A stretch of DNA of 64,000 nucleotides from Candidatus Omnitrophota bacterium. GTDB taxonomy: Bacteria > Omnitrophota > Gorgyraeia > Gygaellales > Profunditerraquicolaceae. How positions within the stretch are numbered: position 1 is the first letter of the stretch; each line of letters opens with the position of its first letter. Of the stretch, positions 14,689 through 61,370 are shown in pieces. Below the pieces are notes generated by a model, which made no database searches, was not told the origin of the DNA, and saw only the letters and a program-made list of their open reading frames with translations. The stretch lies in contig JBAYMG010000001.1 in NCBI GenBank assembly GCA_041663665.1, positions 1,482-65,481 of the forward strand, written 5' to 3'. Both the position numbers and the translations under genes were made by a program.

Positions 14689-14690
14689 CT

Positions 14691-15437: not shown

Positions 15438-15446
15438 GGAGAATAA

Positions 15447-16310: not shown

Positions 16311-17138
16311 ATGAAGGATACCAATATGAACCAATTAAATCAGCAAAATTGTGAAGAAATAGAGATCGATTTAAGGGAATATATAAATGTAATTATTAAG
16401 CACAAAGCTATAATTATAACCACATTCTTCTTATCAATTATTGTTGCTTTTATTCTTAGTTTTTTAAGCCCAAAAGTTTTCGAAACGCATGCCATTATAA
16501 GGCTTGGCAGCATTTCTACAGTATTAATCTCAAAACCTAATGCAATGGCAGAATTGCAGGGCCAAGGATTAATGAATTTAGTCTTGAAGGAAAACAATTT
16601 AAATAATGATAAGGGAGAATTTAGCTCAAAAAAAATATTAAAAGTAGAGGATACTAAAGATACAGAATTTCTTAAAATTACAGTAAGAAATTCTAGTCCT
16701 ATCTTATCCGAGACTATTTGTAATGCCATCGCCAGTAAGTTTGTTTCCGAAAAGAAAGAATTATTTAAGAAGAATATTTTATTTCTAAATGAGCAAATTA
16801 ATGAATTCCAAAAAAGATATCAAATAGTTGTAACCGAGATAGATAATTTTAATAAGAAAATATTAGATTTTACAGTGAATCCCAACTATCCTTTACTTCA
16901 GAATACTATAACTAATTATGAAAGTATTTGTTTTAGTTTAAGAGAAAGAGTCTTCTCACTTAAAGAACAAGAACTTAAATCTCAAGATTTTGAAGTCTTT
17001 GAGCCTGCAGTTATTCCAGGATTTGCTATAAAGCCAAGTGTGCGTAAAAATGTTGCTGTAGCCGGAGCGATTGGGTTAATTTTTAGTTTGTTTTTGGTTT
17101 TTATTATTGAATATTGGAGAAAACTAAATCAAAAATGA
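16311..17138 (+). CDS. wzz: polysaccharide chain-length determinant (Wzz/PCP family)
   Basis: TM helices at the N- and C-termini bracket a coiled-coil-rich periplasmic domain. The 3' end overlaps gmd (ATGA). Confidence 0.6.
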
Positions 17139-18277: not shown

Positions 18278-18280
18278 CCA

Positions 18281-19537: not shown

Positions 19538-20505
19538 AGCGAGCGATTATTGTTGGCGTTGGTGGTCAAGATGGTCAATTACTTTATGAGTTGTTAACGA
19601 AGAACCGGTATTTGGTGATAGGAATTGATAAAAATAAAATTCAATCTTCTTTCAAAGTTTTATTTAAGCAAGTTAATATTTTGAATTTTATTGATGTCGC
19701 GAATCTTATTAAGAAATTTCAGCCTCAGGAGGTTTATTATTTAGCGGCTTTTCATCATTCAGCAGAAGATTTACCAATTGAAAATGCTGAACTTTTGCAA
19801 CGTAGTTATAATGTCCATGTTGTTGGACTTGTGAATTTTTTAGAAGCCATAAAAAAATTCTCTCTAAAATCGCGGATTTTTTATGCAGCTTCATCACATA
19901 TTTTTGGTGAGACAAAAAATGATATTCAGGATGAAGATACGCCGATTAATCCTAACGGTCTGTATGGCATTACTAAGGCGACTGGGCTAGCTCTTTGTAG
20001 ATTTTATCGCTCTAATTATGATATTTTTGTTTCGGTAGGCATACTTTATAATCATGAATCTGCTTTTCGGACTGGAAATTTTGTTTCTATGAAAATCATT
20101 CAAGGAGCGATTAATATCAAAAAAGGGAAACAAAAGCAACTATTTCTTGGGGATTTGGATGCGGTAATTGACTGGGGGTATGCTCTGGATTATGTTCGGG
20201 CGATGCATCTTACGCTAAAAAGCAGGAAGCCCGATGATTTTATTATTGCTACAGGTAAGCGACATACAGTTTTGGATTTTATTAAAGTAGTTTTTAAAAC
20301 ACTTCAATTGGACTGGAAGTTATATATTAAAGAGGATGGCTCTATTGTGCGTAAACAGAGTTTTTATCGTATTGGTAATTCTGCTAAATTAAGAACTAGC
20401 ACTGGGTGGGGGCCCGAATTTAGTTTTAAAGAAATGATAAATAGGATGATAGAAATGAATTTGGAAAAGTTTTCGCTTAATTCAAAGAACAAAATTAAAA
20501 GGTGA
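19534..20505 (+). CDS. Gmd-paralogous SDR, probable GDP-4-keto-6-deoxyhexose reductase (Rmd/Gts-like)
   Basis: Carries GQDG and a Gmd-like C-terminal half (ILYNHESAFRTGNFVSMKII...LGDLDAVIDWGYALDYV) but lacks a dehydratase-type N-terminus. Confidence 0.5.
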   Translation: MKRAIIVGVGGQDGQLLYELLTKNRYLVIGIDKNKIQSSFKVLFKQVNILNFIDVANLIKKFQPQEVYYLAAFHHSAEDLPIENAELLQRSYNVHVVGLVNFLEAIKKFSLKSRIFYAASSHIFGETKNDIQDEDTPINPNGLYGITKATGLALCRFYRSNYDIFVSVGILYNHESAFRTGNFVSMKIIQGAINIKKGKQKQLFLGDLDAVIDWGYALDYVRAMHLTLKSRKPDDFIIATGKRHTVLDFIKVVFKTLQLDWKLYIKEDGSIVRKQSFYRIGNSAKLRTSTGWGPEFSFKEMINRMIEMNLEKFSLNSKNKIKR

Positions 20506-20507
20506 GA

Positions 20508-21485
20508 ATGAATAAAACAGTTTTAGTAACAGGTGCCGGAGGTTTTATTGGCAGTCATTTAGCTGAGAAATTATCTTCTTCCGGATACAGGGTAAAGGCT
20601 TTTGTGCATTATAACTCCAAGAATTCCTGGGGCTGGCTGGACGCATCTAAATGTAAAGAACGCATAGAAGTAATTTCTGGCGATATTAGGGATGCGGATA
20701 TTGTCCGGTATGCGATGCGTGATGTTGAAATAGTTTTTCATCTTGCCGCTTTAATTGGTATTCCTTATTCATATCATTCTCCCGAAGCTTACGTTGATAC
20801 AAATATTAAAGGAACTTTAAATATCTTGCAGGCAGCAAAAGATTTGGGTGTTAAGAAGACTGTCATTACATCTACTAGTGAAATTTACGGCACTGCTCAG
20901 TTTGTCCCAATTACCGAAGCTCATCCGATTAATCCCCAATCTCCATATGCAGCAACTAAATCCGCCGCAGATCTTCTTGCGCTGTCTTTTTACCGGTCTT
21001 TTAATTTACCCGTAGCTATTGTCCGGCCTTTTAATACTTATGGACCGAGGCAGTCTGCGCGGGCGGTTATCCCTACGATTATTACTCAGATACTTAATGG
21101 TAAAAAAAAGATAAAACTTGGGGTGATATCTCCTACCCGTGATTTAACCTACGTAGAAGATACGGTTAATGGGTTTATCTGTGCAGGTAAATGCCCGAAA
21201 TCAGTAGGAGAAATTATTAATCTTGGCACTCATTCAGAAATTTCAATTGGTGACTTAGCTCGGTTGATTTCTAAATATCTTAATAAAAATATAGAAATTG
21301 AATCTGAAAAAGATCGAAAAAGGCCGGTCAAGAGTGAAGTTGAGCGGTTGATGGCGGATAATACTAAAGCCAAGCGGATATTGAATTGGGCTCCAGAATA
21401 TAGCTTAGAAAAAGGCCTAAAGATGACGATTGAATGGTTTAAGAAAAATAAAGATATCTATAAATCAGAAATTTATAACGTGTAG
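20508..21485 (+). CDS. legB: NAD-dependent nucleotide-sugar 4,6-dehydratase (LegB-like)
   Basis: Extended SDR (VTGAGGFIGSHL, YAATKSAADLL) immediately upstream of a legC-ptmE-legH-legI-legG run. Confidence 0.55.
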   Translation: MNKTVLVTGAGGFIGSHLAEKLSSSGYRVKAFVHYNSKNSWGWLDASKCKERIEVISGDIRDADIVRYAMRDVEIVFHLAALIGIPYSYHSPEAYVDTNIKGTLNILQAAKDLGVKKTVITSTSEIYGTAQFVPITEAHPINPQSPYAATKSAADLLALSFYRSFNLPVAIVRPFNTYGPRQSARAVIPTIITQILNGKKKIKLGVISPTRDLTYVEDTVNGFICAGKCPKSVGEIINLGTHSEISIGDLARLISKYLNKNIEIESEKDRKRPVKSEVERLMADNTKAKRILNWAPEYSLEKGLKMTIEWFKKNKDIYKSEIYNV

Positions 21486-21490
21486 GTGTT

Positions 21491-22663
21491 ATGAAAAATA
21501 TCCCACTTTCTGTGCCTAATTTAAACGGTAGAGAATTGCAGTACATTAAAAAATGCATTGATACTAATTGGATTTCTTCTTCCGGCAAGTTCGTTGTCGA
21601 TTTTGAAGATAAAATCTGTAAATATACTAAAGCTAAATTTGCTGTTGCTTGTGTAAATGGCACATCCGGTTTACACATTGCTTTAAAGGTTTGCGGTGTT
21701 TCCAGGGGTGATGAAGTTATCGTCCCGACTCTTACGTTTATTGCTCCGGTTAATGTAGTTAAATATGTAGGAGCTGAGCCGGTTTTTATGGATTGTGATA
21801 ATTATATGAACATTGATCCTGTTAAGCTGCGGGAATTTTGTTCTAAGGAATGCCGAATTACAAGATCGGGTTTAAAAAATAAAAGAACAGGAAGGATTAT
21901 CCGGGCGGTAATTCCAGTCCATATTTTCGGCAATCCTTGTGACATGGAAGAAATTATGAGTATTGCCCGGCAATATCATTTTAAAGTAATTGAAGATGCA
22001 ACTGAGAGCCTGGGTTCGTATTACACAAGAGGAGCCTATAAAAATAAATTTACCGGTACGGTATCTGATGTTGGAGTTTATTCATTTAATGGCAATAAGA
22101 TAATTACTGCCGGCGGCGGCGGGATGATTGTGACGAATAGCAGGGTCATGTCGGATAAAGCCAGGTATTTGACTAATCAGGCTAAAGATGATCCTGTGAG
22201 GTATATTCATAATGAAATTGGGTATAATTTCCGTTTGACCAATTTACAGGCGGCACTGGGTTTGGCGCAGCTAGAGCAGTTAAAAGGTTTTATTAAAACT
22301 AAGAAGTATAATTATGAATTATATAAAAAGCTTTTAAGTGGCATTCGTGGAATTAATATACTGGATCTCCCAGCAGGTACTGCTCCGAATTATTGGTTCT
22401 ATTCGTTGATTATGGAAAAAAATGAATTTGGTATGAACAGAGATGGTGTTATGGAACATTTACAAACAAAAGGCATCCAAGCAAGGCCGGTATGGTATTT
22501 GAATCATCTTCAGAAGCCGTTTAGAAAGAACCAATCATATAAAATTGAGAAAGCGGCGTGGTTTTGGGAAAGAGTTTTAAATTTTCCTTGTAGTACAAAT
22601 TTAGAAATAAAGCAGGTAAAATATATAGTTTCAGTAATTCGAAATTTACACGGAAATAACTAA
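21491..22663 (+). CDS. legC: DegT/DnrJ/EryC1-family PLP aminotransferase (LegC-like)
   Basis: DegT-fold protein with the catalytic Lys context YSFNGNKIITAGGGG. Confidence 0.7.
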   Translation: MKNIPLSVPNLNGRELQYIKKCIDTNWISSSGKFVVDFEDKICKYTKAKFAVACVNGTSGLHIALKVCGVSRGDEVIVPTLTFIAPVNVVKYVGAEPVFMDCDNYMNIDPVKLREFCSKECRITRSGLKNKRTGRIIRAVIPVHIFGNPCDMEEIMSIARQYHFKVIEDATESLGSYYTRGAYKNKFTGTVSDVGVYSFNGNKIITAGGGGMIVTNSRVMSDKARYLTNQAKDDPVRYIHNEIGYNFRLTNLQAALGLAQLEQLKGFIKTKKYNYELYKKLLSGIRGINILDLPAGTAPNYWFYSLIMEKNEFGMNRDGVMEHLQTKGIQARPVWYLNHLQKPFRKNQSYKIEKAAWFWERVLNFPCSTNLEIKQVKYIVSVIRNLHGNN

Positions 22664-22667
22664 TACT

Positions 22668-23726
22668 ATGGAAAAACTTAAGAAGATACTTATAAATCCT
22701 GAGCAAGCTATTAAACATGTTTTAAAGCACATGGATGCAGTTGGAGAGAAAACCATGTTTGTGGTTGATAAAGAAAATAAGCTTTTAGGTACCGTTACAG
22801 ATGGTGATATCAGGAGATGGATATTAAAGGGGAGAAGTTTATTGGATAATGTCTCAAGCGTTATGAATTGTAAGCCGATAAGCTTAAGCAAGGAGTTCAA
22901 ACAGGAGCAAGCTAAAGTAGTAATGATTAAGAAGGAGCTTGGGTGTTTGCCGGTTATAGATAATGAAGGGAGTGTTGTTTCTGCTGTTTGGTGGGTGGAT
23001 CTTTTTAAAAATAAGTTAAAGAAGCAGAAATCTCTAAAATTACCTGTAGTGATTATGGCCGGAGGTGAAGGCGCCCGTTTACACCCCTTTACTAAGATTC
23101 TTCCTAAGCCATTGATGCCAATAGGTGATAAGCCGATTATCGAATTAATTATAAATAAATTTTTTGATTATGGCTGCCAAGATTTTTACCTCTCTTTGAA
23201 TTATAAATCTAATATAATTAAAGCATACTTCAGCGATTTTGAGCATAAATATAAAATCAATTATATTTTAGAGAATAAGCCTTTAGGCACAGCGGGAAGC
23301 CTGCATTTTCTAAAGAATAGGATCAAAAAGACATTTTTTGTTAGTAACTGCGATATTCTTATTGAGGCAGATTACGCGGATATATTAAAATTCCATCACC
23401 AGCGGAAGAATAAAATTACTTTGGTTAGTTCAATGAAAAATTTCACTATTCCTTATGGTGTATGTAAAATTCAAAATGGTGGAATTTTAAAGAATATCCG
23501 GGAAAAGCCGGAATATGATTTTTTAGTTAATACCGGTATGTATATTTTGGAAGCATCAGTTCTTGTAGATATACCCAGGAATCAATTCTATGATATAACT
23601 GATCTTATAAATGATTATCTTAAAAAAGGCGAAAAAATCGGCGTTTATCCTGTTTCGGAAAAATCATGGCTGGATATGGGGCAGTTTGAGGCTCTTCAGG
23701 AAACATTGAAAAAATTTGAGGTTTAA
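22668..23726 (+). CDS. ptmE: CBS-domain sugar-phosphate nucleotidyltransferase (PtmE-like GlcN/GlcNAc-1-P guanylyltransferase)
   Basis: Tandem N-terminal CBS domains followed by an NTP-transferase domain (VVIMAGGEGARLHPFTKILPKPLMPIGDKP). Confidence 0.65.
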   Translation: MEKLKKILINPEQAIKHVLKHMDAVGEKTMFVVDKENKLLGTVTDGDIRRWILKGRSLLDNVSSVMNCKPISLSKEFKQEQAKVVMIKKELGCLPVIDNEGSVVSAVWWVDLFKNKLKKQKSLKLPVVIMAGGEGARLHPFTKILPKPLMPIGDKPIIELIINKFFDYGCQDFYLSLNYKSNIIKAYFSDFEHKYKINYILENKPLGTAGSLHFLKNRIKKTFFVSNCDILIEADYADILKFHHQRKNKITLVSSMKNFTIPYGVCKIQNGGILKNIREKPEYDFLVNTGMYILEASVLVDIPRNQFYDITDLINDYLKKGEKIGVYPVSEKSWLDMGQFEALQETLKKFEV

Positions 23727-23735
23727 GCTAATTTT

Positions 23736-24383
23736 ATGAAACATAAAATATTACTTATTGGGGCAGGCGGGCATTGTAAGGTAATTTTGGATTTGTTTTT
23801 ACAGATTAAGAAATATGAGATATCCGGTATACTTGATTTGAAAGAGAATCTGGGTAATAAGATTCTGGGAGTTTCGGTTATTGGTACTGATGCAGATTTG
23901 CCGCGTTTTTTTAAAACAGGTATTAAATATTGTTTTATTTCAGTAGGAAGCGTAGGTAATCCCCGTTTGCGTATTAAATTGTATAATTTTGCTAAGCAGT
24001 CAGGGTTTTTGTTTCCGAATTTAATCAGCCCTAATGCTCAGGTGTCTTCGCATGTTATTCTGGGAGAAGGTAACTATATTGCCCCGGGAGTAATTATAAA
24101 TGCCGGAACTCAAATCGGCAATAATTGTATTCTTAATACCGGAGCAATTATTGAGCATGATTGTAAGATCGGTAATTTTGTTCATCTTTCTCCGGGGTCA
24201 GTGTTAAGCGGCGGCGTAAACATAGGTGATAATTGTCATGTTGGGACCGGAAGCGTAGTAATTCAGGGTGTTCAGATTGCCGGGCAAACGATTATCGGAG
24301 CTGGAAGCGTGGTTACGAAAAACATTCTTAAAGGAATGATTGCTTACGGCAATCCGTGTAAAGAAAGAAGAACAAATGGATAA
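23736..24383 (+). CDS. legH: NeuD/PglD-family hexapeptide N-acetyltransferase (LegH-like)
   Basis: N-terminal Rossmann-like KILLIGAGGHCKV followed by left-handed beta-helix hexapeptide repeats. Confidence 0.7.
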   Translation: MKHKILLIGAGGHCKVILDLFLQIKKYEISGILDLKENLGNKILGVSVIGTDADLPRFFKTGIKYCFISVGSVGNPRLRIKLYNFAKQSGFLFPNLISPNAQVSSHVILGEGNYIAPGVIINAGTQIGNNCILNTGAIIEHDCKIGNFVHLSPGSVLSGGVNIGDNCHVGTGSVVIQGVQIAGQTIIGAGSVVTKNILKGMIAYGNPCKERRTNG

Positions 24384-25380
24384 GGTGTTTATTATCGCTG
24401 AAGCCGGAGTCAATCATAACGGTTATCTTAAAATTGCGAAGAAAATGGTAGATGCGGCGGCAGAATCCGGAGCTGATGCAGTTAAATTCCAAACGTTTAA
24501 TGCTGAGTCGCTGGTTTCTAAGTATGCACCTAAGGCTGCATATCAGAAGAAAAATACGGACAAAGGCGAAAGCCAGTTGGAAATGATCAAAAAGCTGAGG
24601 CTAGATTTCAATGCCCATAAGGAATTGATAAGATATTGCCGAATAAAGAAAATTATGTTTCTTTCCTCGCCATTTGATTTAGAGAGTATTGATCTTTTAT
24701 CCGGGCTTGGCCTGGAAATATTTAAAATACCATCTGGAGAAATAACTAATTTGCCTTATTTGCGTAAAATAGGTTCTTTGAGGAAGAAAATTATACTTTC
24801 AGCTGGAATGGCGGATCTTAAAGAGATAGGCATTGCTTTAGAGATTTTAATCTCTTCAGGCACTAAAAAAAGCAACATAACTGTTTTGCATTGTAATACT
24901 GAATATCCTACGCCTTTAGAAGACGCTAATTTAAGGGCTATGCTGACGATCAGAGATAAGTTTAAGGTTAAGGTGGGCTACTCCGACCATACCTTGGGTG
25001 TTGAAGTGGCTATTGCCGCTGTTGCTATGGGTGCTTCGATCATTGAAAAACATTTTACTTTAAATAAAAAAATGGCTGGGCCGGATCATAAGGCCAGCCT
25101 TGAGTGTGATGAATTAAAACAGATGGTTACTTTAGTCAGGAATATCGAAAAAGCGATTGGAAGTGGGATAAAAGAGCCTTCTAAATCAGAAGTTAAGAAC
25201 ATTAATCTTGTAAGAAAAAGTATCGTTGCGGCAAATAATATTAAAAAAGGCGAAAGATTTAATAAAAATAACATTACCGTAAAGAGGCCGGGATTTGGTT
25301 TAAGTCCGATGCTGTGGGACGCAGTTGTTAATAAAAAAGCCAAACAGGATTTTAAGGCAGGCGATTTAATAAAAACATGA
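24376..25380 (+). CDS. legI: N-acetylneuraminate-synthase-family enzyme (legionaminic acid synthase, LegI/NeuB)
   Basis: VFIIAEAGVNHNG opens the NeuB TIM barrel, and a C-terminal SAF/antifreeze-like domain is present. Confidence 0.85.
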   Translation: MDKVFIIAEAGVNHNGYLKIAKKMVDAAAESGADAVKFQTFNAESLVSKYAPKAAYQKKNTDKGESQLEMIKKLRLDFNAHKELIRYCRIKKIMFLSSPFDLESIDLLSGLGLEIFKIPSGEITNLPYLRKIGSLRKKIILSAGMADLKEIGIALEILISSGTKKSNITVLHCNTEYPTPLEDANLRAMLTIRDKFKVKVGYSDHTLGVEVAIAAVAMGASIIEKHFTLNKKMAGPDHKASLECDELKQMVTLVRNIEKAIGSGIKEPSKSEVKNINLVRKSIVAANNIKKGERFNKNNITVKRPGFGLSPMLWDAVVNKKAKQDFKAGDLIKT

Positions 25381-26546
25381 AGAAAAGAATATGGGTAGTA
25401 ACTGGTTCAAGAGCAGAATATGGTTTATTGAAACCTTTAATTAAAAATATAATTGAAGACGGCAAATTTGCCCTTGAAGTAATTGTTACAGGCCAACATT
25501 TAGACAGCCGGTTTGGTTTGACATTTAAGGATATTGAGAAAGATGGTATTAGAATAAGTAAAAAAGTAAGGATGCTTGCTGATGGTGATTCTCAGTATTC
25601 TATTGCTCAATCCGTAGGTTTGGGTATTTCAAAATTTGGAGCAATTTTCGCTAAAGAGAAGCCTGATCTTTTAATTGTGCTTGGAGATAGGTTTGAGATT
25701 TTTGCTGCTACAAGCGCTGCCTTTATTTTCAAAATCCCAATTGCCCATTTACATGGAGGGGAGCTGACTTCCGGATCGATGGATGATGTTTTTAGGCATG
25801 CGGTTACTAAAATGAGCATACTGCATTTTGTCTCTACTTCCGAGTACAAAAGAAGAGTGGTGCAATTGGGGGAGGATCCGCAAAGGGTGTTTAATGTCGG
25901 GGCCATAGGAATAGATAATATTAAACAGGCAAAACTATTACCGATTTTAGAGCTAGAAAAAGAACTTAAGTTTAAACTAGGTAAAAGAAATATTTTGGTT
26001 ACATTCCATCCTGCAACATTAGAGGAAGATAAGTGCGTATCTTCATTTAATCAGCTGCTTTTGGCTTTGGATGATTTTAAGGATGTAAAAATAATTTTTA
26101 CTAAGCCCAATGTTGATATCGGGAGCCTTGAAATCGGTAAGATGATTGATGATTATGTAAAACGAAATGAGGATAGGGCAAAGGCATTTGTTTCTTTAGG
26201 GACATTAAAATACCTTTCATTGATAAAAAACGTAGATGCGGTAATTGGAAATTCGTCTAGCGGAATAATCGAAGTTCCGTCATTTGGTAAGCCTACGGTT
26301 AACATTGGTAATCGGCAAAAGGGCAGAATTAGGGCAAAAAGTGTGATTGATTCTAAGTCGCAAATGAAACAGATTTCAAACTCGATCAAGAAGGCGCTTT
26401 CTCCTGAGTTTGCGGAGTTTTGTAAGTCAGTAAATAATCCCTATGGTAATGGAAATACCGCTAGAAAGATTTATAACTTGATTAAAAGAGATATTAATAC
26501 CTTGAGCAATCTTCAGAAGATTTTTTATACGATGGGAGAAAAATGA
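25377..26546 (+). CDS. legG: hydrolysing UDP/GDP-N-acetylglucosamine 2-epimerase (LegG/NeuC)
   Basis: VVTGSRAEYGLL...GDRFEIFAATSAAFIFKIPIAHLHGGE match NeuC. Confidence 0.85.
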   Translation: MKKRIWVVTGSRAEYGLLKPLIKNIIEDGKFALEVIVTGQHLDSRFGLTFKDIEKDGIRISKKVRMLADGDSQYSIAQSVGLGISKFGAIFAKEKPDLLIVLGDRFEIFAATSAAFIFKIPIAHLHGGELTSGSMDDVFRHAVTKMSILHFVSTSEYKRRVVQLGEDPQRVFNVGAIGIDNIKQAKLLPILELEKELKFKLGKRNILVTFHPATLEEDKCVSSFNQLLLALDDFKDVKIIFTKPNVDIGSLEIGKMIDDYVKRNEDRAKAFVSLGTLKYLSLIKNVDAVIGNSSSGIIEVPSFGKPTVNIGNRQKGRIRAKSVIDSKSQMKQISNSIKKALSPEFAEFCKSVNNPYGNGNTARKIYNLIKRDINTLSNLQKIFYTMGEK

Positions 26547-27313
26547 ATTACAAATCACTTTTTGATTTAAATAATAAAGTAATAGTTGTGGTTGGCGGAG
26601 CCGGATTAATCGGCAGCGAAATCGTAAAGGGCTTAAGGGATTTTGGGGCAGATGTGTATATTGCTGATACTAACGAGGAAACCGGAAAGAAAATAAAAAC
26701 TAAAGGCACTAAGTTTGTTTATTTAGACATAACTTCCGAAGGTTCTATCCATAAGGCTTTAAAACAAATTTGTAATGACACAAAGAAAATTGATGTATTA
26801 ATTAATTGTGCATATCCCAGAACCAGTGATTGGGGATTAAAAATGGAAAAAGTTACTTTTGATTCCTGGAAAAAAAATGTAAATAATCATTTGGGTGGAT
26901 ATTTTCTCTGCTCTAAAGTTACGGCAGAATTGATGAAGAAAGAATCAAGAGGGGTTATTATAAATTTTGCTTCAATTTACGGTGTAGTGGCACCGGATTT
27001 TGATATATATAAAGGCACCAAAATGACAATGCCGGTAGCTTATTCCGCGATAAAGGGAGGAATTATAAATTTTACTAAATATTTGGCTACCTATTATGCA
27101 AAATACAACATTAGGGCTAATGTTGTATCTCCGGGAGGAGTTTTTAATCAGCAATCTGCTTCGTTTCTAAAAAAATATGCCAGTAAAACTCCGCTTAAGC
27201 GGATGGCAAAGCCACAGGATATTGTCGGGGCAGTGATATATCTTTGTTCAGAAGCCTCTTCTTATGTTACCGGCCAGAACATTTTAGTAGACGGCGGATG
27301 GAGTGTCTGGTAA
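26543..27313 (+). CDS. short-chain dehydrogenase/reductase (PtmA-like)
   Basis: Classical SDR with GGAGLIGSEI and YSAIKGG. The position matches ptmA in Campylobacter legionaminic-acid loci. Confidence 0.5.
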   Translation: MNYKSLFDLNNKVIVVVGGAGLIGSEIVKGLRDFGADVYIADTNEETGKKIKTKGTKFVYLDITSEGSIHKALKQICNDTKKIDVLINCAYPRTSDWGLKMEKVTFDSWKKNVNNHLGGYFLCSKVTAELMKKESRGVIINFASIYGVVAPDFDIYKGTKMTMPVAYSAIKGGIINFTKYLATYYAKYNIRANVVSPGGVFNQQSASFLKKYASKTPLKRMAKPQDIVGAVIYLCSEASSYVTGQNILVDGGWSVW

Positions 27314-28251
27314 TGAAAATATTGCTTGTCGGCTGTGGGTCTATTGGTAGAAGACATCTAGAAAACTTAAATCAACTATCTGAAGTCAGCCAGATATTTG
27401 TTTATTCTAAAGTTAAGCATTGCTTAGATTGCCTAGAAGATAAGCATAAAGTTTCAATGGTAAAGTCTTTGAATGCTATTCAGCCCGATGTAGCTATTAT
27501 TGCTAATGAGACTAATAGGCACATAAATACAGCGGTAATTTTAGCAAAAAAAGGAATTCATTTATTTGTCGAAAAGCCGCTTGCGCATAATTTATCCGGC
27601 AAGCTTGAGCTGTTAAAAAAAATTATTAAATTAAAAAAAATAAAGCTTGGGGTTGGATATAATTTAAGATTTTTGGGAGCGTTTGAATTTATTAAAACCA
27701 AACTTTCTCAAGGTGCTATCGGCAAAATATATTTTGCCAAGATCGAAGTTGGACAGTATCTACCTTTTTGGAGAAGTAAATGTGATTATAGCATTTCTTA
27801 TAGCGCTTCAAAAAAACGCGGTGGAGGCGTGGCTTTAGATTTATCGCATGAAATAGATTATATGCGTTTTCTTTTTGGCGACCCTAATTCATGTAAAGTA
27901 GCCAAAGCTAAAGTGAGCAGTCTAAAAATTGATTCAGAGGACGTATTCGAAGGAATTTACGTTTACGATAATTTTATCTGCAATGTCCATATGGATTATT
28001 TGCAGAAAAACAAAAAAAGAGTTATCAGAATAGAAGGTGAAAAGGGGGAGCTTATTTGCGATCTAATCAATAAGAAAATAGTAATAGATGTTTTAGGTAA
28101 GAAAACGATAGTTTCTGATAAAAAACTTTTTGATCTGGATAAAACGTACAAAGATGAAATCTTTAGTTTTATAAAATCAGTAAAATTTAATCGTAAGCCA
28201 GCAGTTACTTTTGAAGACGGAGTAAAAGTGCTCAAGCTTATTGAGGCTTAA
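27313..28251 (+). CDS. Gfo/Idh/MocA-family oxidoreductase (PtmF-like)
   Basis: KILLVGCGSIGRRHL Rossmann N-terminus followed by a GFO_IDH_MocA C-terminal domain. Confidence 0.5.
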   Translation: MKILLVGCGSIGRRHLENLNQLSEVSQIFVYSKVKHCLDCLEDKHKVSMVKSLNAIQPDVAIIANETNRHINTAVILAKKGIHLFVEKPLAHNLSGKLELLKKIIKLKKIKLGVGYNLRFLGAFEFIKTKLSQGAIGKIYFAKIEVGQYLPFWRSKCDYSISYSASKKRGGGVALDLSHEIDYMRFLFGDPNSCKVAKAKVSSLKIDSEDVFEGIYVYDNFICNVHMDYLQKNKKRVIRIEGEKGELICDLINKKIVIDVLGKKTIVSDKKLFDLDKTYKDEIFSFIKSVKFNRKPAVTFEDGVKVLKLIEA

Positions 28252-28252
28252 A

Positions 28253-28969
28253 ATGTATAAAAATAAAAAAATAGTTTGTATTATTCCGGCTAGAGGCGGA
28301 TCAAAAGGTTTGCCCGGCAAAAATATTAAAATGCTTCTTGGTAAGCCGTTGATTGCTTATAGCATCCGGCAGGCTAAGCAATCTGAGTTGATTGATAGAG
28401 TTATCGTTTCTACGGATGATAAAAAGATTGCGAAAATATCAGAAAAGTATGGTGCTGAAGTTCCTTTTATCAGGCCGAAGTCTTTAGCACAAGATAAAAG
28501 CAGCACAATGGATGTTTTATTGCATGCTATGGAGTGGCTTAAGAAAGATAACTATTCGTTTGATGTCCTGGTTTTATTGCATGCAACAGCACCATTAAGA
28601 TTGGTAGGAGATATTAATAATAGTATTAAATTGTTATTCAATAAGAATGTGTCCAATGTTTTTTCTGTTACCGAGGCGCATAGGAATCCTTATTTTAATA
28701 TGGTGGAAGTAAAACGGGGTAGAGTCAAGCTTGTTAAAAAAAGCTGTTTTACCGCCAGGCAAGCAGCACCCGAGGTTTATGATATGAATGCTTCAATATA
28801 CGTCTGGTGGAAGGATGTTTTAATAAAAGGGAAAGGGGTATTCTTAAGCAACAGCCGTATCTATGTTATGCCCAAGAGAAGATCTATTGATATTGATGAT
28901 TATATAGATTTCAGAGTAGCGGAAATACTAATGATTGAACAAAGCATAATAAGGAGAAATAAAAAATGA
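28253..28969 (+). CDS. legF: CMP-nonulosonic acid synthetase (acylneuraminate cytidylyltransferase family, LegF-like)
   Basis: IVCIIPARGGSKGLPGKNIK is the CMP-NeuAc synthetase P-loop. Confidence 0.8.
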   Translation: MYKNKKIVCIIPARGGSKGLPGKNIKMLLGKPLIAYSIRQAKQSELIDRVIVSTDDKKIAKISEKYGAEVPFIRPKSLAQDKSSTMDVLLHAMEWLKKDNYSFDVLVLLHATAPLRLVGDINNSIKLLFNKNVSNVFSVTEAHRNPYFNMVEVKRGRVKLVKKSCFTARQAAPEVYDMNASIYVWWKDVLIKGKGVFLSNSRIYVMPKRRSIDIDDYIDFRVAEILMIEQSIIRRNKK

Positions 28970-29865
28970 AACAAATTCTTAAGGATACAATCCGCCGGAT
29001 ATTTCACATATTTGGTGTTCATCTGTCCCGCTACCCGTTAAAACACAAAACACCTGTTCTTAATAACGTTTTTGGTCATACAGTATTCCAAAATACCCAA
29101 GATATTGGTACAGCCTATGGACGACTCGCTAATGTCGATATTCATGGCCTCGGCAAACTTTGGGAAGACGGCGAAATCAACTTTATTGTCAACGCAGTCA
29201 AGCAGGGAAATACTGTAATTGATATCGGTGCCAACATCGGTATAGTTACGCTCCTATTGGCGAAATTAGTTGGACCAAAAGGGCGCGTGGTGTCATTTGA
29301 ACCAGGGCCGATGAGTTTTGCTTTGTTGACCACAAATGTTCTTGTTAACAACTATAAAAACATCACACTTGTGAATAACGCAGTATCTTCTATAAGTGGT
29401 ACGGAACAACTCTTTATCTGTCCTAGTGGCGAGAGCGACAATCAAGTATCTAAATTGCCTTTGGATTGGGAAGAAGACCGAATCAGTATTCCCTGTCACA
29501 CAGTTAGTTTGGATGATTACTTCAGCAGGGGGGGCAATGATGGAGCAATTGATTTTATCAAGATAGACACGCAAGGGGGAGAGTACAAAGCGTTATTGGG
29601 TATGAAAAATCTTCTTGCCAGGAATAAGAACATCCGGCTGACAGTTGAATATGCGTCATATCTTCCTCTGTGGTTGGAATCAGAAAAGCATGAATTTTTT
29701 GACTTAGTGCGTTCGTTAGGATTTTATATATACGATCTTAAATCTGTAACTCCAAAACTGGTAAGCGAAAAGGATCTTCTGGAAATGTATCCTCGCAACA
29801 CCTATAGATCCACAGGATCCGGTCTATGTACGACTTTGCTTTTGCAAAGAGATAGAAACATCTGA
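28966..29865 (+). CDS. FkbM-family SAM-dependent methyltransferase
   Basis: IDIGANIGIVTLLLAKLVGPKGRVVSFEP is FkbM motif I. Local GC rises from this gene onward. Confidence 0.65.
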   Translation: MKQILKDTIRRIFHIFGVHLSRYPLKHKTPVLNNVFGHTVFQNTQDIGTAYGRLANVDIHGLGKLWEDGEINFIVNAVKQGNTVIDIGANIGIVTLLLAKLVGPKGRVVSFEPGPMSFALLTTNVLVNNYKNITLVNNAVSSISGTEQLFICPSGESDNQVSKLPLDWEEDRISIPCHTVSLDDYFSRGGNDGAIDFIKIDTQGGEYKALLGMKNLLARNKNIRLTVEYASYLPLWLESEKHEFFDLVRSLGFYIYDLKSVTPKLVSEKDLLEMYPRNTYRSTGSGLCTTLLLQRDRNI

Positions 29866-29985
29866 CCCAGTGCAAATATTTTCTCCCTTACCTGGAAGTA
29901 TATAGGGAGATAATATCTGACACACAAGAGGTCTATTTTGGGCATAGAGATATTGATTTTAAGTAGCAGAAATGTTGATTAAAAG

Positions 29986-30843
29986 ATGACTAAAAATATA
30001 CGAATCATCCCTAGGCTTGATATTAAAGGGCCTAACCTTGTTAAAGGTATTCATTTAGAAGGATTACGTGTTCTTGGTAAACCGGAAGATTTTGCCAGGT
30101 TCTACTATGAAAATGGGGCCGATGAGCTTATTTATATGGACGTTGTTGCTAGTTTATATAATCGAAACAGCTTGCACGATATAATTAATAAAACCGCGCA
30201 GGAAATTTTTATTCCTTTGACAGTTGGGGGAGGGTTAAGAACCATAGAAGATATTCGTAGCGTTTTGCGGGCTGGTGCGGATAAGGTTTCTTTGAATACT
30301 GCGGCTATTAGAAATCCTAACTTTATTCATGAGGCATCGCGTATATTCGGCTCTTCCACAATTATTGTTACTATTGAAGCAATTAAGCAGCCTAACGGAG
30401 AATATTTTGCATATATTGATAATGGCAGGGAATATACGGGGATAGAAGTTTCTTTCTGGGCAAAACAGGTAGAGCAGTTAGGAGCTGGTGAAATATTGTT
30501 GACATCTGTAGATCGTGATGGAACAGGAGCAGGATACGATCTTGATCTGGTGAAAACCGTATCCGAATTAGTATCTATTCCCGTGATTGCCTCCGGCGGA
30601 CCAGGAAAAATTGAGGATATTAAACAAGTCGTAACCGAAGGCTATGCTGATGCTGTGGCAATCGCCTCTATGTTGCATTATGATGCTATCAAGTACTTAG
30701 AATCTAATTTAGATTCGTTTGTCGAAGGGAATGTCGAATTTCTTAAGAGCGGCCGTATTCTTACTAAATTTGAGCCTGTATCGCTACCGAGTATAAAAAA
30801 ATATCTTGTTAATCAAGGTGTTCAATGCCGTTTCGCTAATTGA
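29986..30843 (+). CDS. HisF-like cyclase subunit (WbuZ-type) for acetamidino-sugar synthesis
   Basis: (beta/alpha)8 HisF motifs ([18 protein letters not shown]) found in a glycan locus next to HisH-like and amidotransferase genes. Confidence 0.75.
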
Positions 30844-30847
30844 AATA

Positions 30848-31543
30848 ATGCTTATGTTTAATTTAGATGAGAATCAGGTAGCGATTATTGATTATGGCAT
30901 GGGTAATTTGTTTAATGTTCAACGAGCTTGTGCCAAGGTTGGATTACGCAGCGTTATTACCGCGGATAAGAATGTTATTATGCAATCAAACGGCGTAATT
31001 CTTCCCGGGGTAGGAGCATTCGGAGATGCCATTGCTAATCTAAAACGATTGGATTTGATTGGTTTAATAAGAGAGCAGATTAGCCGGAACATACCTTTTT
31101 TGGGGGTTTGTCTGGGAATGCAATTATTAATGACTGAAAGTGAAGAATTCGGCGGGCATAAAGGTTTTGATATTATCAGGGGCAGAGTTGTTAAGTTTAA
31201 TAACTCTGATCAGAGAAATCCAATGATTAAAGTTCCTCATGTTGGCTGGAATCGGATACTTTTTAAAAAAAATCAATCTATGAATTTAGGCGATTCTGTT
31301 TTGCAGGATATATCTAATGGTGAGTATATGTATTTCGTGCATTCCTATTATCCTGTACCTGAGGATGACGCGGTTACTGTTACGACGACCTGTTATGAAG
31401 GCATTGAATACTGTTCATCGTTATCTAGGGGGTCGGTTTTTGCTGTGCAGTTTCATCCTGAAAAAAGCGGATTAGAAGGTCTTAAGGTCTATGAGAATTG
31501 GGCAAATAAGGTGAATCAATATGAGGAGTTGAAACACAAATGA
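30848..31543 (+). CDS. HisH-like glutamine amidotransferase subunit (WbuY-type)
   Basis: Class I GATase with the GVCLGMQ catalytic Cys and a His-Glu pair (FHPEKS). Confidence 0.75.
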   Translation: MLMFNLDENQVAIIDYGMGNLFNVQRACAKVGLRSVITADKNVIMQSNGVILPGVGAFGDAIANLKRLDLIGLIREQISRNIPFLGVCLGMQLLMTESEEFGGHKGFDIIRGRVVKFNNSDQRNPMIKVPHVGWNRILFKKNQSMNLGDSVLQDISNGEYMYFVHSYYPVPEDDAVTVTTTCYEGIEYCSSLSRGSVFAVQFHPEKSGLEGLKVYENWANKVNQYEELKHK

Positions 31544-32760
31544 GCGAAAAATTAGAAGTTAAGTATGGATTGCCGGAAGAAGTCAGGTTTTGTAACCGTT
31601 GTGTTATGTCCAATCAAAGGCCTTCTTCTGCTGTAGAATTTAAACATACAATAAATAGCAAAAAAAATACGCTAAATATCGGAAAAGATGGTGTATGCGA
31701 TGCATGCATGCAGGCAGAAAAAAAAGAAAAAATTGATTGGAAAAAGAGGGAAGAGGAACTTGTTCAATTATTGGATAAACATCGGCGTAACGACGGTTAC
31801 TACGATTGCATTGTCCCTGGAAGCGGCGGTAAAGATAGCGCCTTTCAATCACACATTTTAAAATATAAATATGGGATGCATCCCCTGACAGTAACTTGGC
31901 CGCCAATCATTTATACGGATTATGGATATAAAAATTTTAGGAAATGGATTGAAGTTGGCGGGTTTGACAATTTAAGTTTTAATCAAAATGGGCGGGTTAT
32001 GAAGTTATTAACTCGTTTATCTATTGAAAATTTACTACATCCATTTCAAACGTTCATTTTAGGGCAAAAGAATCTGGGGCCGAAGGTTGCTTTGAAATAT
32101 GATATTCCTTTAATTTTTTACGGTGAAAATGAGGCAGAATACGGAAATCCGATTGCGGATAATGCGACATCGCTGCGTGATAAATCATATTATAGTATGA
32201 AGAATATTGATGAAATGTATCTGGGGGGTGTTTCTGTTAGGGAGCTAAGAGATAAGTATGATATTGATTTAATTGATTTAATGACATATTTGCCTGCGCC
32301 GCATGAACAGTTGGAGAAATCCAAGATTGAAGTACATTATCTTGGCTATTATTTAAAATGGACACCGCAGGAAGTTTATTATTATGCTGTTGAAAATACC
32401 GGTTTTGAAGCTAGGCCGTTTAGAACTCAGGGCACTTACAGTAAATATAATAGCATCGATGACAAAATTGACGATCTCCATTATTATACAACATTTATTA
32501 AGTTTGGTATTGGGCGGGCTACTTATGATGCTTCTCAAGAGATAAGAAATAAGCATCTGACGCGTGAGGAAGGTGTCGCTCTGGTAAAGAAATTTGACGG
32601 AGAGTTTCCGGATAAATATTTTAAAGAAATTATGGATTACATTAGCATCGATCCTAATTATTTTATAGAGCTTTGTGATAAGTTCCGGTCGCCGCATTTA
32701 TGGAAGGAAGAAAACGGTGAATGGAAATTAAGGCATGCAGTTTGGCATGATCAGATCTAA
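31540..32760 (+). CDS. N-acetyl sugar amidotransferase (LfnA/WbuX/PseA-type PP-loop ATP pyrophosphatase)
   Basis: PP-loop SGGKDS (VPGSGGKDSAF). The gene follows the hisH/hisF-like pair exactly as in acetamidino-sugar clusters. Confidence 0.7.
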   Translation: MSEKLEVKYGLPEEVRFCNRCVMSNQRPSSAVEFKHTINSKKNTLNIGKDGVCDACMQAEKKEKIDWKKREEELVQLLDKHRRNDGYYDCIVPGSGGKDSAFQSHILKYKYGMHPLTVTWPPIIYTDYGYKNFRKWIEVGGFDNLSFNQNGRVMKLLTRLSIENLLHPFQTFILGQKNLGPKVALKYDIPLIFYGENEAEYGNPIADNATSLRDKSYYSMKNIDEMYLGGVSVRELRDKYDIDLIDLMTYLPAPHEQLEKSKIEVHYLGYYLKWTPQEVYYYAVENTGFEARPFRTQGTYSKYNSIDDKIDDLHYYTTFIKFGIGRATYDASQEIRNKHLTREEGVALVKKFDGEFPDKYFKEIMDYISIDPNYFIELCDKFRSPHLWKEENGEWKLRHAVWHDQI

Positions 32761-42067: not shown

Positions 42068-42085
42068 ATTATCATCAACTTGAGA

Positions 42086-43714
42086 ATGAAATATACGACG
42101 CAACCAGATTTCCAAGATACGAAAAAAGACAAACCTAAGCTAAATGCTACGGATGCTCTGAATTATTCTGCTTCTTTAGTCGAGAATTTCGGTAGGACTG
42201 AGCTTTCTAACGGAAAAACCCTGGCAGAAATACTTACTGTGGAAGGCATCTCTTTCTGGGATGTGTTTTCTGCCGAATTCGCGCATAGTCATATCCCGAC
42301 TTTATTAGCGTCCGAAGCTTTACCCGAGACCATAATACAGCGGATAAGGCCGGACTTGATACGATTGAAGTATACGGTTAAGGATTTAATTTGTAACCGC
42401 CGTAATACATATGGATGCTCAACGTGGCCAACAGGGCAAACTTTTCTTTGTCTTGGCTTCACTAATCAGATGTATAGGGATGTTCTTCATCCGGTAGTCG
42501 CCCGTCTGGTGCTGCGTGAAGATTGTTACGTAGTGGTGCTGAGCGATCAATATTTGCCTGGCATGAAGCCGTTTTTCTCTGAGAATTGTAAATATCAAAC
42601 ATTATGGCAGCATTGGAATGAACAAGTAAGAAAGCAGGTTTCTGAACTACAGAAATCAATTTACCATATTGAAGCAGATATTCAATTATCGAGCTTTTTA
42701 TCGCGGATAATACCTGATGTTGACCGGCGGCTGGCAACTAATTTCAAAAACCTCTTTGACCGGTTTTTCCGGGCCTATTTACCTCACATTATTCCGCATG
42801 TTGCCGTGGCCCGGCATATTTTAGAGAACCACCGCCCCGCGATGATAATTACGTCTGATACGGCCGATCCCCGGACTAGGGTTTATGCTTTACTTTGTCG
42901 TCTTATGAATATCCCTTGTATGGATGTTCAGTTCGGTCTAGCCGGTGATGAAGGGGTTGAGTGGCGTTTCCTTGCGGCTGATCGCGTTGCCGTTTGGGGG
43001 GATACTTCGAAAGAGTCCATGTTGAAACAGAAAGTTTCCGAAGAGAGAATAATTGTAACAGGTTCGCCGCGTCACGATTGTTTGGTCAATTCGTCTAAAG
43101 CGGAAATAAGGTTAAAACGAGCCATGCTGCGTATTCCGGAAAAAAGCGCACTGGTTGTGATGGCCTCCACTTATCATTTTAAGGTCCATGACAAATACTC
43201 AAATCCGGAACTCTTGCGTTCAATGAAGCGCGCAGTATTCGAGGCGGCCGATAAAACGGAAGGAATATGCCTTGTGGTTAAGCCTCATCCGGTTGAAAAT
43301 GTGCGTGAGACGCGAGCACTGTTGGGAAAATTCCGGAATGTTATTTTTGTTGAACGGCAGTCTGATATCCGGGAGTTGATCAGAGTTTGTGATGCTTTCA
43401 TTTCATTTGGTTCCACAGCGACTATTGATGCGCTTATTGCCGGTAAGCTTACTATTTGTCCCATTTTTCCGAGCTGGGTTTTTAGCGATACTTTTAGAAG
43501 AAGTGGGGCAACTCTTGTTCCTGAATCAAGCGAGGAGATTATAAATATATTCAAGATGATTGCAAGTGGTTCTGATGTTAATACTAAGGCAAGGCTTGAG
43601 TCTGCACGTCAGGATTTTTTAAAGCATTATGTGTATCAGACAGACGGAATGGCTGCCGCCCGCGTTGAAGCGCTGGCATTAAAGATGGTCGATATGAATC
43701 GCGAGCATGGATAA
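42086..43714 (+). CDS. hypothetical GT-B-like transferase (capsule-synthesis / CDP-glycerol glycerophosphotransferase-like); candidate nonulosonic-acid transferase
   Basis: 544-aa soluble protein with a Rossmann-like C-terminal half (VVMASTYHF...VVKPHP...FISFGSTATIDALIAGK) reminiscent of GT-B or Capsule_synth folds. No confident family assignment. Confidence 0.3.
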   Translation: MKYTTQPDFQDTKKDKPKLNATDALNYSASLVENFGRTELSNGKTLAEILTVEGISFWDVFSAEFAHSHIPTLLASEALPETIIQRIRPDLIRLKYTVKDLICNRRNTYGCSTWPTGQTFLCLGFTNQMYRDVLHPVVARLVLREDCYVVVLSDQYLPGMKPFFSENCKYQTLWQHWNEQVRKQVSELQKSIYHIEADIQLSSFLSRIIPDVDRRLATNFKNLFDRFFRAYLPHIIPHVAVARHILENHRPAMIITSDTADPRTRVYALLCRLMNIPCMDVQFGLAGDEGVEWRFLAADRVAVWGDTSKESMLKQKVSEERIIVTGSPRHDCLVNSSKAEIRLKRAMLRIPEKSALVVMASTYHFKVHDKYSNPELLRSMKRAVFEAADKTEGICLVVKPHPVENVRETRALLGKFRNVIFVERQSDIRELIRVCDAFISFGSTATIDALIAGKLTICPIFPSWVFSDTFRRSGATLVPESSEEIINIFKMIASGSDVNTKARLESARQDFLKHYVYQTDGMAAARVEALALKMVDMNREHG

Positions 43715-60475: not shown

Positions 60476-60476
60476 A

Positions 60477-61364: not shown

Positions 61365-61370
61365 AATACT

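Follow-up and report, generated by a model that had tools for sequence, protein, structure and literature searches.

A predicted acetamidino-legionaminic acid module with an added FkbM-family methyltransferase in an O-antigen-type cluster of Candidatus Omnitrophota

The stretch of Candidatus Omnitrophota DNA analyzed here (the window, 64 kb in full) belongs to a metagenome contig of 114 kb (ENA ERZ27247350 k141_505116) and carries, at positions 20508 to 32760, a run of 13 genes that probably encodes the synthesis of a derivative of legionaminic acid (Leg), a nonulosonate sugar. All 13 genes lie on the + strand and mostly overlap or abut one another in an operon-like manner, in the order LegB, LegC, PtmE-like, LegH, LegI, LegG, PtmA-like, PtmF-like, LegF, FkbM, HisF-like, HisH-like, and WbuX (Table 1). 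A preliminary description, made from the letters of the window, had listed these genes with this order and set of coordinates, and we found all of them in place. Its limits for the module agree exactly with the gene calls made independently for the identical contig in the public record (numbering offset from the window, +14339), which put the LegB start at 20508 and the WbuX stop at 32760. Translation probably begins downstream of the longest-open-reading-frame start in the PtmF-like, LegF, and HisH-like genes, and that of LegI probably begins at 24376 (NCBI call, 334 amino acids [aa]).

Table 1. Features of the module and of the surrounding polysaccharide cluster, with the models or domains on which the predicted functions are based
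Feature	Position	Strand	Model or domain	Predicted function or remark
legB	20508..21485	+	TIGR04180	Short-chain NAD-dependent nucleoside diphosphate (NDP)-GlcNAc 4,6-dehydratase (retaining), first committed step
legC	21491..22663	+	TIGR04181	Pyridoxal phosphate (PLP) aminotransferase, giving the 4-amino-4,6-dideoxy intermediate
ptmE-like	22668..23726	+	CBS and NTP_transferase domains	CBS pair plus sugar-1-phosphate nucleotidyltransferase, proposed GlcN-1-P guanylyltransferase
legH	23736..24383	+	PglD_N, hexapeptide domains	NeuD/PglD-family N-acetyltransferase (4-N-acetylation)
legI	24340..25380	+	TIGR03569	NeuB-family nonulosonate synthase, phosphoenolpyruvate (PEP) condensation
legG	25377..26546	+	NeuC family TIGR03568	Hydrolyzing NDP-sugar 2-epimerase
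ptmA-like	26543..27313	+	PRK09186	Short-chain dehydrogenase/reductase (SDR) family oxidoreductase
ptmF-like	27313..28251	+	GFO_IDH_MocA domains	Gfo/Idh/MocA oxidoreductase
legF	28253..28969	+	PF02348 CTP_transf_3	CMP-nonulosonate synthetase (cytidylyltransferase)
FkbM	28966..29865	+	TIGR01444, PF05050	S-adenosylmethionine (SAM) methyltransferase of the FkbM family, between legF and the amidino trio
HisF-like	29986..30843	+	WbuZ model	WbuZ/AglZ-type amidotransferase partner
HisH-like	30806..31543	+	TIGR01855	Glutaminase (ammonia donor)
WbuX	31540..32760	+	TIGR03573	WbuX/PtmG-type PP-loop N-acetyl sugar amidotransferase (acetamido to acetamidino)
TagB/TagF-like protein	42080..43714	+	PF04464, 42 bits	544 aa; candidate CMP-Leg-dependent transferase, outside the module
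GlmM/PgmL-like mutase	3474-4901			Before the polysaccharide cluster
Wzz-like protein	16311..17138	+	Pfam and NCBIfam matches	Chain-length regulator, head of the polysaccharide cluster
Wzx	40562-42067	+	Pfam/NCBIfam
Wzy-like protein	48143-49348	+	Pfam/NCBIfam
Phosphoglycosyltransferase	53524-54084	+	Pfam/NCBIfam
O-antigen-ligase-like protein	55927-57195	+	Pfam/NCBIfam

Gene families were called by comparing bit scores with the cutoffs of curated models (NCBIfam/TIGR, PRK, and Pfam). LegB scored 495.5 bits against its Leg-specific model (cutoff 475) and just 78 bits against the PseB model, while LegC reached 485.4 bits (cutoff 420) and stayed below the cutoff of the PseC model (234 bits; cutoff 423). 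LegB retains the motifs GxxGxxG (residue 11) and YxxxK (residue 149) and is 59 to 62% identical to the LegB proteins of two related cassettes described below (L173 and L174). The remaining core enzymes were placed in the NeuB family (LegI, 501 bits, cutoff 400; PseI model 306 bits), the NeuC family (LegG, 464 bits, cutoff 236), and the NeuD/PglB family (LegH, TIGR03570, 223 bits, cutoff 161). LegF and LegH are assigned at the family level, as no LegF- or LegH-specific model exists; LegF is 39 to 44% identical to its counterparts in the L173 and L174 cassettes and 40% identical to the Escherichia coli O108 enzyme. Since the PseB, PseC, and PseI scores are far lower and a hydrolyzing 2-epimerase of the NeuC type is present, a pseudaminic acid (Pse) pathway is excluded. 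The identification of a LegB/LegC-type pathway, as in Campylobacter and Tannerella, in place of one for N-acetylneuraminic acid (Neu5Ac) or Pse thus stands, with LegB and LegC above their specific cutoffs and the Pse models failing.

All chemical steps of the pathway, as well as the nucleotide used, the nitrogen that is amidinated, the acceptor of the methyl group, and the transferase, are predicted from the sequence, and the order of the steps is taken from the homologous enzymes of Campylobacter jejuni and Tannerella forsythia. The PtmE-like enzyme would first form an NDP-hexosamine, probably linked to guanosine diphosphate (GDP). LegB would then dehydrate NDP-N-acetylglucosamine (NDP-GlcNAc) at C4/C6, LegC would aminate C4 and LegH acetylate it, LegG would cleave off the nucleotide and epimerize C2, LegI would carry out the condensation with PEP, and LegF would form the cytidine monophosphate (CMP)-activated sugar. 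GDP is the likely nucleotide, judging from T. forsythia LegB, which accepts GDP-GlcNAc only (PMC5378307), and from a marginal similarity of the PtmE-like protein, whose NTP-transferase domain has mannose-1-phosphate guanylyltransferases and the GDP-heptose enzyme HddC as its best solved relatives (78.7 to 75.4 bits). The CBS-nucleotidyltransferase architecture of this protein recurs in every Leg cassette examined. The pathway had been called complete; this holds from GDP-GlcNAc onward, while the supply of glucosamine 1-phosphate (GlcN-1-P) and the N-acetylation step lie outside the region.

Downstream of these genes, the HisF-like, HisH-like, and PP-loop genes had been read as the set that turns an acetamido into an acetamidino group, as in Leg5Am7Ac or PseAm. 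Their assignment to the Leg pathway is supported by synteny in three other loci and by the similarity of WbuX to a Legionella enzyme. WbuX scored 353 bits against its family model (cutoff 203) and aligned with the N-acetyl sugar amidotransferase (NASAT) of Legionella pneumophila (PDB 8WEX) with 552 bits and 58% identity over 385 columns. It has an intact PP-loop, SGGKDS, at residues 95 to 100 and the zinc cysteines Cys18, Cys21, Cys53, and Cys56; the SGGxDS PP-loop and the CxxC...CxxC zinc motifs of N-acetyl sugar amidotransferases have been defined previously (PMC10607449). The HisH-like protein (203 bits, cutoff 105) carries the nucleophile motif GVCLG and a C-terminal HPE, and its match begins at residue 25, the true start probably lying ~40 to 70 nucleotides (nt) downstream. 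The HisF-like protein reached 211 bits with the AglZ/HisF2 model and is 68 to 69% identical to its L173 and L174 counterparts. Around all three of the WbuX relatives that we looked up, one on a metagenome contig from JGI, one from Smithellaceae (contig L173), and one from Bacteroidota (L174, a contig of 4.2 Mb), we found a cassette of the form LegB-LegC-LegH-LegI-LegG-PtmE-(SDR)-(Gfo)-LegF-HisF-HisH-WbuX; legF leads straight into hisF except in L173, where an SDR gene stands between the two. Because the order LegF-HisF-HisH-WbuX is kept in these three loci, the trio appears to belong functionally to the Leg pathway, and this cross-phylum synteny is the strongest evidence here that it modifies the nonulosonate. 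By the same recurrence, the module is common, not special. Mechanistically, the HisH-like glutaminase and its HisF-like partner would deliver ammonia to WbuX, which would activate one N-acetyl carbonyl with ATP and convert it into an acetamidino group, most likely yielding the acetamidino-Leg nucleotide CMP-Leg5Am7Ac as in Legionella and Campylobacter. The synteny and the 58% identity to the Legionella enzyme suggest that the group acted upon is the N5-acetyl of (CMP-)Leg; in the lipopolysaccharide (LPS) locus of Legionella, the ptmG homologue ORF 28 (lpg0748) has been proposed to convert CMP-Leg5Ac7Ac into CMP-Leg5Am7Ac (PMC3766260). E. coli genomes, searched at the DNA level for distant similarity to the trio, gave no match.

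A separate observation concerns the degree of conservation of WbuX, which is 79 to 85% identical across Omnitrophota, Smithellaceae, and Bacteroidota (window versus L173:10001-11209 and L174:10001-11227) and has at least 120 protein clusters at 79 to 90% identity. It is far more conserved than its operon neighbors, the identities in the same loci being ~40% for LegC, 39 to 44% for LegF, and 49 to 53% for HisH.

The two oxidoreductase genes between legG and legF are less easily placed. The PtmA-like SDR protein passes the broad model PRK09186 (271 bits, cutoff 255) and is 37% identical to the SDR protein of the E. coli O108 module, and the PtmF-like protein is 31% identical to the Gfo protein of the same module. 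The Bacteroidota cassette (L174) is without an adjacent SDR/Gfo pair, which marks these genes as optional for the core pathway. They would be accessory and may act in precursor supply, a role proposed in Campylobacter, or in epimerization at C-8 with the SDR as an ElaC-like partner; as they could serve either role, the product may be Leg or 8-epilegionaminic acid (8-epi-Leg). In passing, we noted that the SDR gene (ElaC/PtmA-like) of the O108-type module in the O-antigen cluster of E. coli ECZP248 (L176, NZ_CP034784.1, 11740-12503) is split into two open reading frames (ORFs). Should epimerization at C-8 require the SDR, the product of this strain might be Leg and not 8-epi-Leg.

The only nonstandard element of the otherwise known cassette is the insertion of FkbM (TIGR01444, 93.5 bits, cutoff 37.7). 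Its ATG overlaps the legF stop codon (ATGA, 28966-28969) and is preceded by an AAGGAG Shine-Dalgarno sequence 9 nt upstream; on its 3' side there is a 120-bp gap. A scan for promoters and terminators over 16 to 34 kb gave counts equal to those of shuffled sequences and nothing in this gap. FkbM is absent from all three of the syntenic Leg-amidino cassettes, and this absence, together with the ATGA overlap and the Shine-Dalgarno sequence, marks it as an inserted, cotranslated accessory gene that is specific to the lineage. An AlphaFold2 model of the protein (pLDDT, the predicted local distance difference test score, 88.5) shows a class I fold of a generic kind; when this model was compared with the PDB by Foldseek, only generic class I methyltransferases matched (template-modeling score [TM] ~0.4), uninformative on the substrate, and a sequence search of the PDB likewise gave nothing informative on the substrate. 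Orthologues at 44 to 57% identity were found in metagenomes only, the closest (57%) on ~2-kb contigs with uninformative neighbors.

We read six independent orthologue contexts (L168/169, L004, L166, L003, L005, and L170). At 54% identity (L168/169), the orthologue lies inside a nonulosonate cluster with LegG, LegH, PtmE, LegB, and a WbuX-like gene; at 53% (L004), it is flanked by Wzx and a TagB-like gene, with a CMP-transferase/SDR/HisH/HisF/WbuX-like set 3.5 kb upstream; and at 51% (L166), it adjoins the same TagB-like gene and a Gmd-like/C-methyltransferase pair. No nonulosonate genes are visible around the orthologues at 50% (L003, which also has no Gmd-like or C-methyltransferase gene), 45% (L005, fused to Gmd), and 44% (L170, adjoining a C-methyltransferase and a Gmd-like gene). 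As a background of distant FkbM loci, we used genome and metagenome contig scans with the alignment of FkbM orthologues, the matches listed being all at most 44% identical. A WbuX-like neighbor is present in two of the six close contexts and in none of the 73 distant loci that span 12 kb or more (Fisher p = 0.005), nor in any of the 160 distant loci among the matches listed. The closest relatives of FkbM thus lean toward nonulosonate clusters, although the linkage is not obligatory.

Taken together, with gene content, family membership, intact motifs, and conserved synteny directly observed, we consider it probable that the 13-gene module, set within a Wzx/Wzy O-antigen-type cluster, makes a CMP-activated 5,7-diamino-3,5,7,9-tetradeoxy-nonulosonic acid of the legionaminic type, the WbuX trio most likely giving CMP-Leg5Am7Ac and FkbM being a lineage-specific addition. 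Several values weigh against this interpretation. The HisF-like protein falls slightly under the cutoff of the WbuZ model (280 versus 299.7 bits), the SDR protein under that of the PtmA model (186 versus 350 bits), and LegF under that of the PseF model (187 versus 206 bits); the margin by which the PtmE-like domain prefers guanylyltransferases over a UTP-glucose-1-phosphate enzyme (72.3 bits) is ~6 bits; and LegI shares 51% identity with the Neu5Ac synthase from the sialic acid cluster of E. coli O104 and only 49% with the O108 synthase. The 51% identity to the O104 enzyme, together with the NCBI name of LegI, N-acetylneuraminate synthase, would suit an arrangement of two adjacent but separate pathways, in which NeuC, NeuB, and NeuA homologues make Neu5Ac from UDP-GlcNAc while LegB, LegC, and LegH make a diacetylbacillosamine-type sugar that is used alone. 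We rejected plain identity as a test of Leg versus Neu, given that LegI is about equally close to a true NeuB and to the O108 enzyme. LegI is otherwise 68 to 79% identical to at least 120 metagenomic clusters, several of them named N,N'-diacetyllegionaminate synthase by JGI, 58 to 62% identical to the synthases of the L173 and L174 cassettes, and 57% identical to homologues on plasmid records of Ensifer and Subdoligranulum, each of which has LegB/LegC neighbors. In a neighbor-joining tree, LegI groups with all homologues that have LegB/LegC-type neighbors (window, L173, L174, L177, and L178); the O108 type is sister to this clade, the O104 NeuB lies just outside, and the NeuB of Neisseria meningitidis, SpsE of Bacillus subtilis, and PseI of C. 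jejuni lie further out. The NeuB-family phylogeny that had been suggested as a check proved a weak test and does not part Leg from Neu synthases cleanly: the node between the LegI clade and the O104 NeuB has only 67% bootstrap support, a further point on the negative side, and SpsE, which is needed for Leg synthesis in B. subtilis (PMC7439481), falls outside, so that Leg synthases do not form one clade. Better evidence comes from elsewhere. The best solved relative of LegG is the hydrolyzing GDP/UDP-N,N'-diacetylbacillosamine (diNAcBac) 2-epimerase (PDB 5zlr/5xvs, 316 bits; human GNE, 175 bits), genes for a dehydratase, an aminotransferase, and PtmE are all missing from the E. coli O104 cluster, which is one for true Neu5Ac, and the 9- to 12-gene order is kept as a single block in the three other loci and two plasmid records. 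With its LegB, LegC, LegH, and PtmE-like genes, the window operon departs from the pattern of the O104 cluster, and two separate pathways are highly improbable.

It is also very unlikely that the trio amidinates some other N-acetyl sugar of the repeat unit, of the FucNAm or ManNAc3NAmA type as in E. coli O145 or Pseudomonas aeruginosa O5. WbuX-family enzymes are known for such sugars (PMC10607449) and several further sugar pathways are encoded in the cluster, but the trio directly follows legF in the three other cassettes, and WbuX is close to an enzyme of Legionella, whose O-antigen is a polymer of Leg5Am7Ac (PMC3766260). Moreover, a scan of window genes showed no UDP-GlcNAc 6-dehydrogenase domain and, in the genes it covered, no FnlA match above the cutoff. 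More room is left for 8-epi-Leg, or another C-4/C-8 isomer, as the product, with the Gfo and SDR proteins acting like ElaA and ElaC of Acinetobacter baumannii in oxidation and reduction at C-8, although we regard this as rather unlikely. Homologues of the NTP-transferase, Gfo/Idh/MocA, cytidylyltransferase, and SDR proteins (31 to 40% identity) occur together in the cluster of E. coli O108, whose O-antigen contains 8-epi-Leg, but these identities are low, and the PRK09186 match of the SDR is uninformative on stereochemistry. Campylobacter, which has the same PtmF, LegF, and PtmA genes, makes D-glycero-D-galacto Leg. In favor of the epimer are the absence of the SDR/Gfo pair from L174 and the use by A. 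baumannii of lgaABCDEF plus elaABC, where ElaA is a putative oxidoreductase (PMC9676051).

The role of FkbM can be narrowed less far. Its most likely action is the transfer of a single methyl group onto the nonulosonate or a neighboring sugar, and an O-methyl is more likely than an N-methyl by family precedent, since the characterized FkbM-family enzymes (FkbM, NoeI, and RfbT) are, to our knowledge, O-methyltransferases. The N-methylacetimidoyl derivative that the preliminary description had envisaged is unsupported: FkbM is missing from the conserved cassettes that have the same trio, and four of the six close contexts are without a visible WbuX-like gene, so that the two do not consistently occur together. 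The WbuX-like genes of the remaining two (L004 and L169) are, in addition, just 30 to 31% identical to WbuX of the window. It is thus unlikely that FkbM N-methylates the acetamidino group to give Leg5AmNMe7Ac, as PtmH does in Campylobacter coli/jejuni and ORF 8 in L. pneumophila serogroup 1, even though FkbM sits exactly between legF and the trio, is translationally coupled to legF, and has two close orthologues in clusters that also carry a WbuX-like gene. The precedent itself is that of ptmH (Cj1325) and Legionella ORF 8, methyltransferases tied to N-methylated Leg5Am (PMC3766260). One RAST-based table, which lists Cj1325/6 as a hypothetical protein and uses "FkbM family" only for Cj1426c, gives no sign that PtmH is an FkbM protein. 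It is tempting to speculate that FkbM is nevertheless dedicated to the nonulosonate, either N-methylating the acetamidino group (convergently with PtmH and ORF 8, if these belong to another family) or O-methylating Leg5Am7Ac, and acting with the TagB-like protein; we hold this to be a minority possibility, under which Omnitrophota would display methylated Leg5Am on their O-antigen. We know of no description of O-methylated Leg5Am7Ac. Counting against such dedication are the orthologues at 44 to 51% identity in clusters without visible nonulosonate genes, three of them with Gmd-like and/or C-methyltransferase genes nearby, and the presence of a Gmd/C-methyltransferase/reductase set 9 kb upstream of FkbM in the window, and by these FkbM may methylate a 6-deoxyhexose instead.

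This upstream set (17114-20505) lies directly before legB and consists of Gmd, a TylC3-like NDP-hexose C-methyltransferase (Pfam Methyltransf_13/23/14), and a Gmd-like reductase, which look like a branch for a GDP-6-deoxy-3-C-methyl-hexose of the virenose or evalose type. Relatives of the set adjoin the FkbM orthologues in L166 and L170, and all three genes recur in L082.

For the transfer of the sugar, the TagB-like protein is a reasonable candidate. Homologues of ~540 aa adjoin the FkbM orthologues in L004 (10984-12582) and L166 (1888-3495); the three copies are 38 to 40% identical and share a conserved KPHP motif. Its score with NF046086, the BFO_1060 family of glycosyltransferases, is 80 bits, far under the cutoff of 200, which speaks against the assignment; members of this family transfer Pse or Leg derivatives in T. 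forsythia, as was shown by knockout (PMC5420450). The TagB-like protein would probably transfer the sugar into a lipid-linked repeat unit, which Wzx would export and Wzy polymerize.

The setting of the module agrees with such a route. All sizeable ORFs of the window are on the + strand, the GC content ranges from 0.32 to 0.44, and the 64 kb contain neither flagellin nor Maf genes. Housekeeping genes (proA, nadD, rpe, the GlmM/PgmL-like mutase gene, rpsA, and tyrS) precede a polysaccharide cluster that starts at ~9.7 kb and extends nearly to the end of the window. The cluster comprises rmlA, an rmlD-like gene, rmlB, Wzz, Gmd, the C-methyltransferase, the reductase, the 13-gene module, glycosyltransferases, an RfbH-like enzyme, a GT11 glycosyltransferase, two B12-radical-SAM proteins, and an Fcl-like enzyme. 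It also holds Wzx, the TagB-like protein, several methyltransferases, a Wzy-like protein, a phosphoglycosyltransferase, a PglF-like dehydratase, an O-antigen-ligase-like protein, and a CDP-glucose branch. The Wzz, Wzx, Wzy-like, ligase-like, and phosphoglycosyltransferase genes share the strand-run with the Leg module and together indicate an O-antigen-type polymer.

Several further features of the cluster deserve mention. Its two B12-binding radical SAM proteins (35634-37631 and 50493-51932) both score under the cutoff, one resembling KedN5-family C-methyltransferases (272 bits) and the other HpnJ (415 bits), and radical SAM genes also directly follow WbuX in the JGI contig and in L173. Methyltransferases are unusually numerous (38694, 43832, 47066, and 57188, in addition to FkbM and the C-methyltransferase); the 304-aa protein at 38694-39608 has no Pfam match, and its match to the NanM family of putative sugar O-methyltransferases stays under the cutoff (36.9 versus 44 bits). 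At the 3' end of the gene run (59735-62414), a metallo-β-lactamase (MBL)/RNase-Z-like protein, an acetylating acetaldehyde dehydrogenase (384 bits, cutoff 282), and a 4-hydroxy-2-oxovalerate aldolase (392 bits, cutoff 286) directly follow the CDP-glucose branch (57973 and 58710). These are unusual neighbors for an O-antigen cluster and may be unrelated to it or provide a unit of two or three carbons to a branched sugar. Finally, between the rml genes and Wzz the cluster is broken by a REP-associated tyrosine transposase, a RhuM-family gene, and a papain-like (C1) peptidase (8005-8691 and 13697-16196), suggesting a mosaic assembly of the locus.

The surface glycan had been thought possibly host-mimicking. 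This is unsupported, as the source is an environmental Candidatus Omnitrophota metagenome-assembled genome, the module sits in a cluster of the Wzx/Wzy O-antigen type, and the cassette is common in environmental phyla; its conservation across distant environmental phyla and the unusually conserved amidotransferase (79 to 90% identity) argue against reading such clusters as mimicry of animal hosts. Candidatus Omnitrophota would join the lineages predicted to bear surface acetamidino-legionaminic acid, a link for which we found no paper in the literature searched. The practical value is small and lies in a compact operon of 12 kb that could serve to produce CMP-Leg5Am7Ac heterologously and in a candidate pair of methyltransferase and transferase.

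Compared with known systems, the logic of a PP-loop amidotransferase with HisH-like and HisF-like partners is that of E. coli O145 WbuX/WbuY/WbuZ, P. aeruginosa WbpG, and Methanococcus AglX/Y/Z, but these act on FucNAc or 2,3-diacetamido-uronic acids, whereas the trio of the window is tied to a nonulosonate pathway. E. coli O108 and A. baumannii (lgaABCDEF plus elaABC) share the NTP-transferase, Gfo/Idh/MocA, cytidylyltransferase, and SDR genes beside LegC, NeuC, NeuB, and an acetyltransferase; they differ in having a PglF-like UDP-GlcNAc dehydratase in place of LegB and a KpsS-like transferase, and in having neither the amidino trio nor FkbM. The CMP-Leg locus of T. forsythia FDC 92A2/UB4 (BFO_1063-1074) shares the LegB/LegC/LegG/LegI/LegF/PtmE set and, with the weak match of the window protein, a TagB-like nonulosonate transferase (BFO_1060/TFUB4_00887), and it has a methyltransferase between the Leg locus and the transferase. 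However, the sugar of T. forsythia goes onto the O-glycan of an S-layer protein, and no PseA/PtmG homologue was found there. The flagellin-glycosylation locus of C. jejuni/coli (LegB, LegC, LegH, LegG, LegI, LegF, PtmE, PtmF, PtmA, PtmG [Cj1324], and PtmH [Cj1325/6]) uses, step for step, the same enzyme families as the window, among them the short LegB-type dehydratase, the CBS-nucleotidyltransferase, and a WbuX-type amidotransferase with an adjacent methyltransferase, and its products are CMP-Leg5Ac7Ac, CMP-Leg5Am7Ac, and CMP-Leg5AmNMe7Ac (PMC3766260, PMC5378307). Unlike the Campylobacter locus, the window module forms a single tight operon within a cluster of the Wzx/Wzy O-antigen type, its HisH and HisF partners adjoin the amidotransferase, and its SDR fails the PtmA model. 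The LPS locus of L. pneumophila (ORFs 22-28, with NeuC/NeuB/NeuA and ORF 28/lpg0748; the NASAT of PDB 8WEX; and the ORF 8 methyltransferase) differs in starting at UDP-diNAcBac rather than with LegB, LegC, and PtmE types and in exporting via Wzm/Wzt rather than Wzx/Wzy, but it shares with the window the O-antigen context, an amidotransferase with the same PP-loop and Zn-Cys4 motifs, and an accessory methyltransferase, which in Legionella modifies the amidino sugar (PMC3766260).

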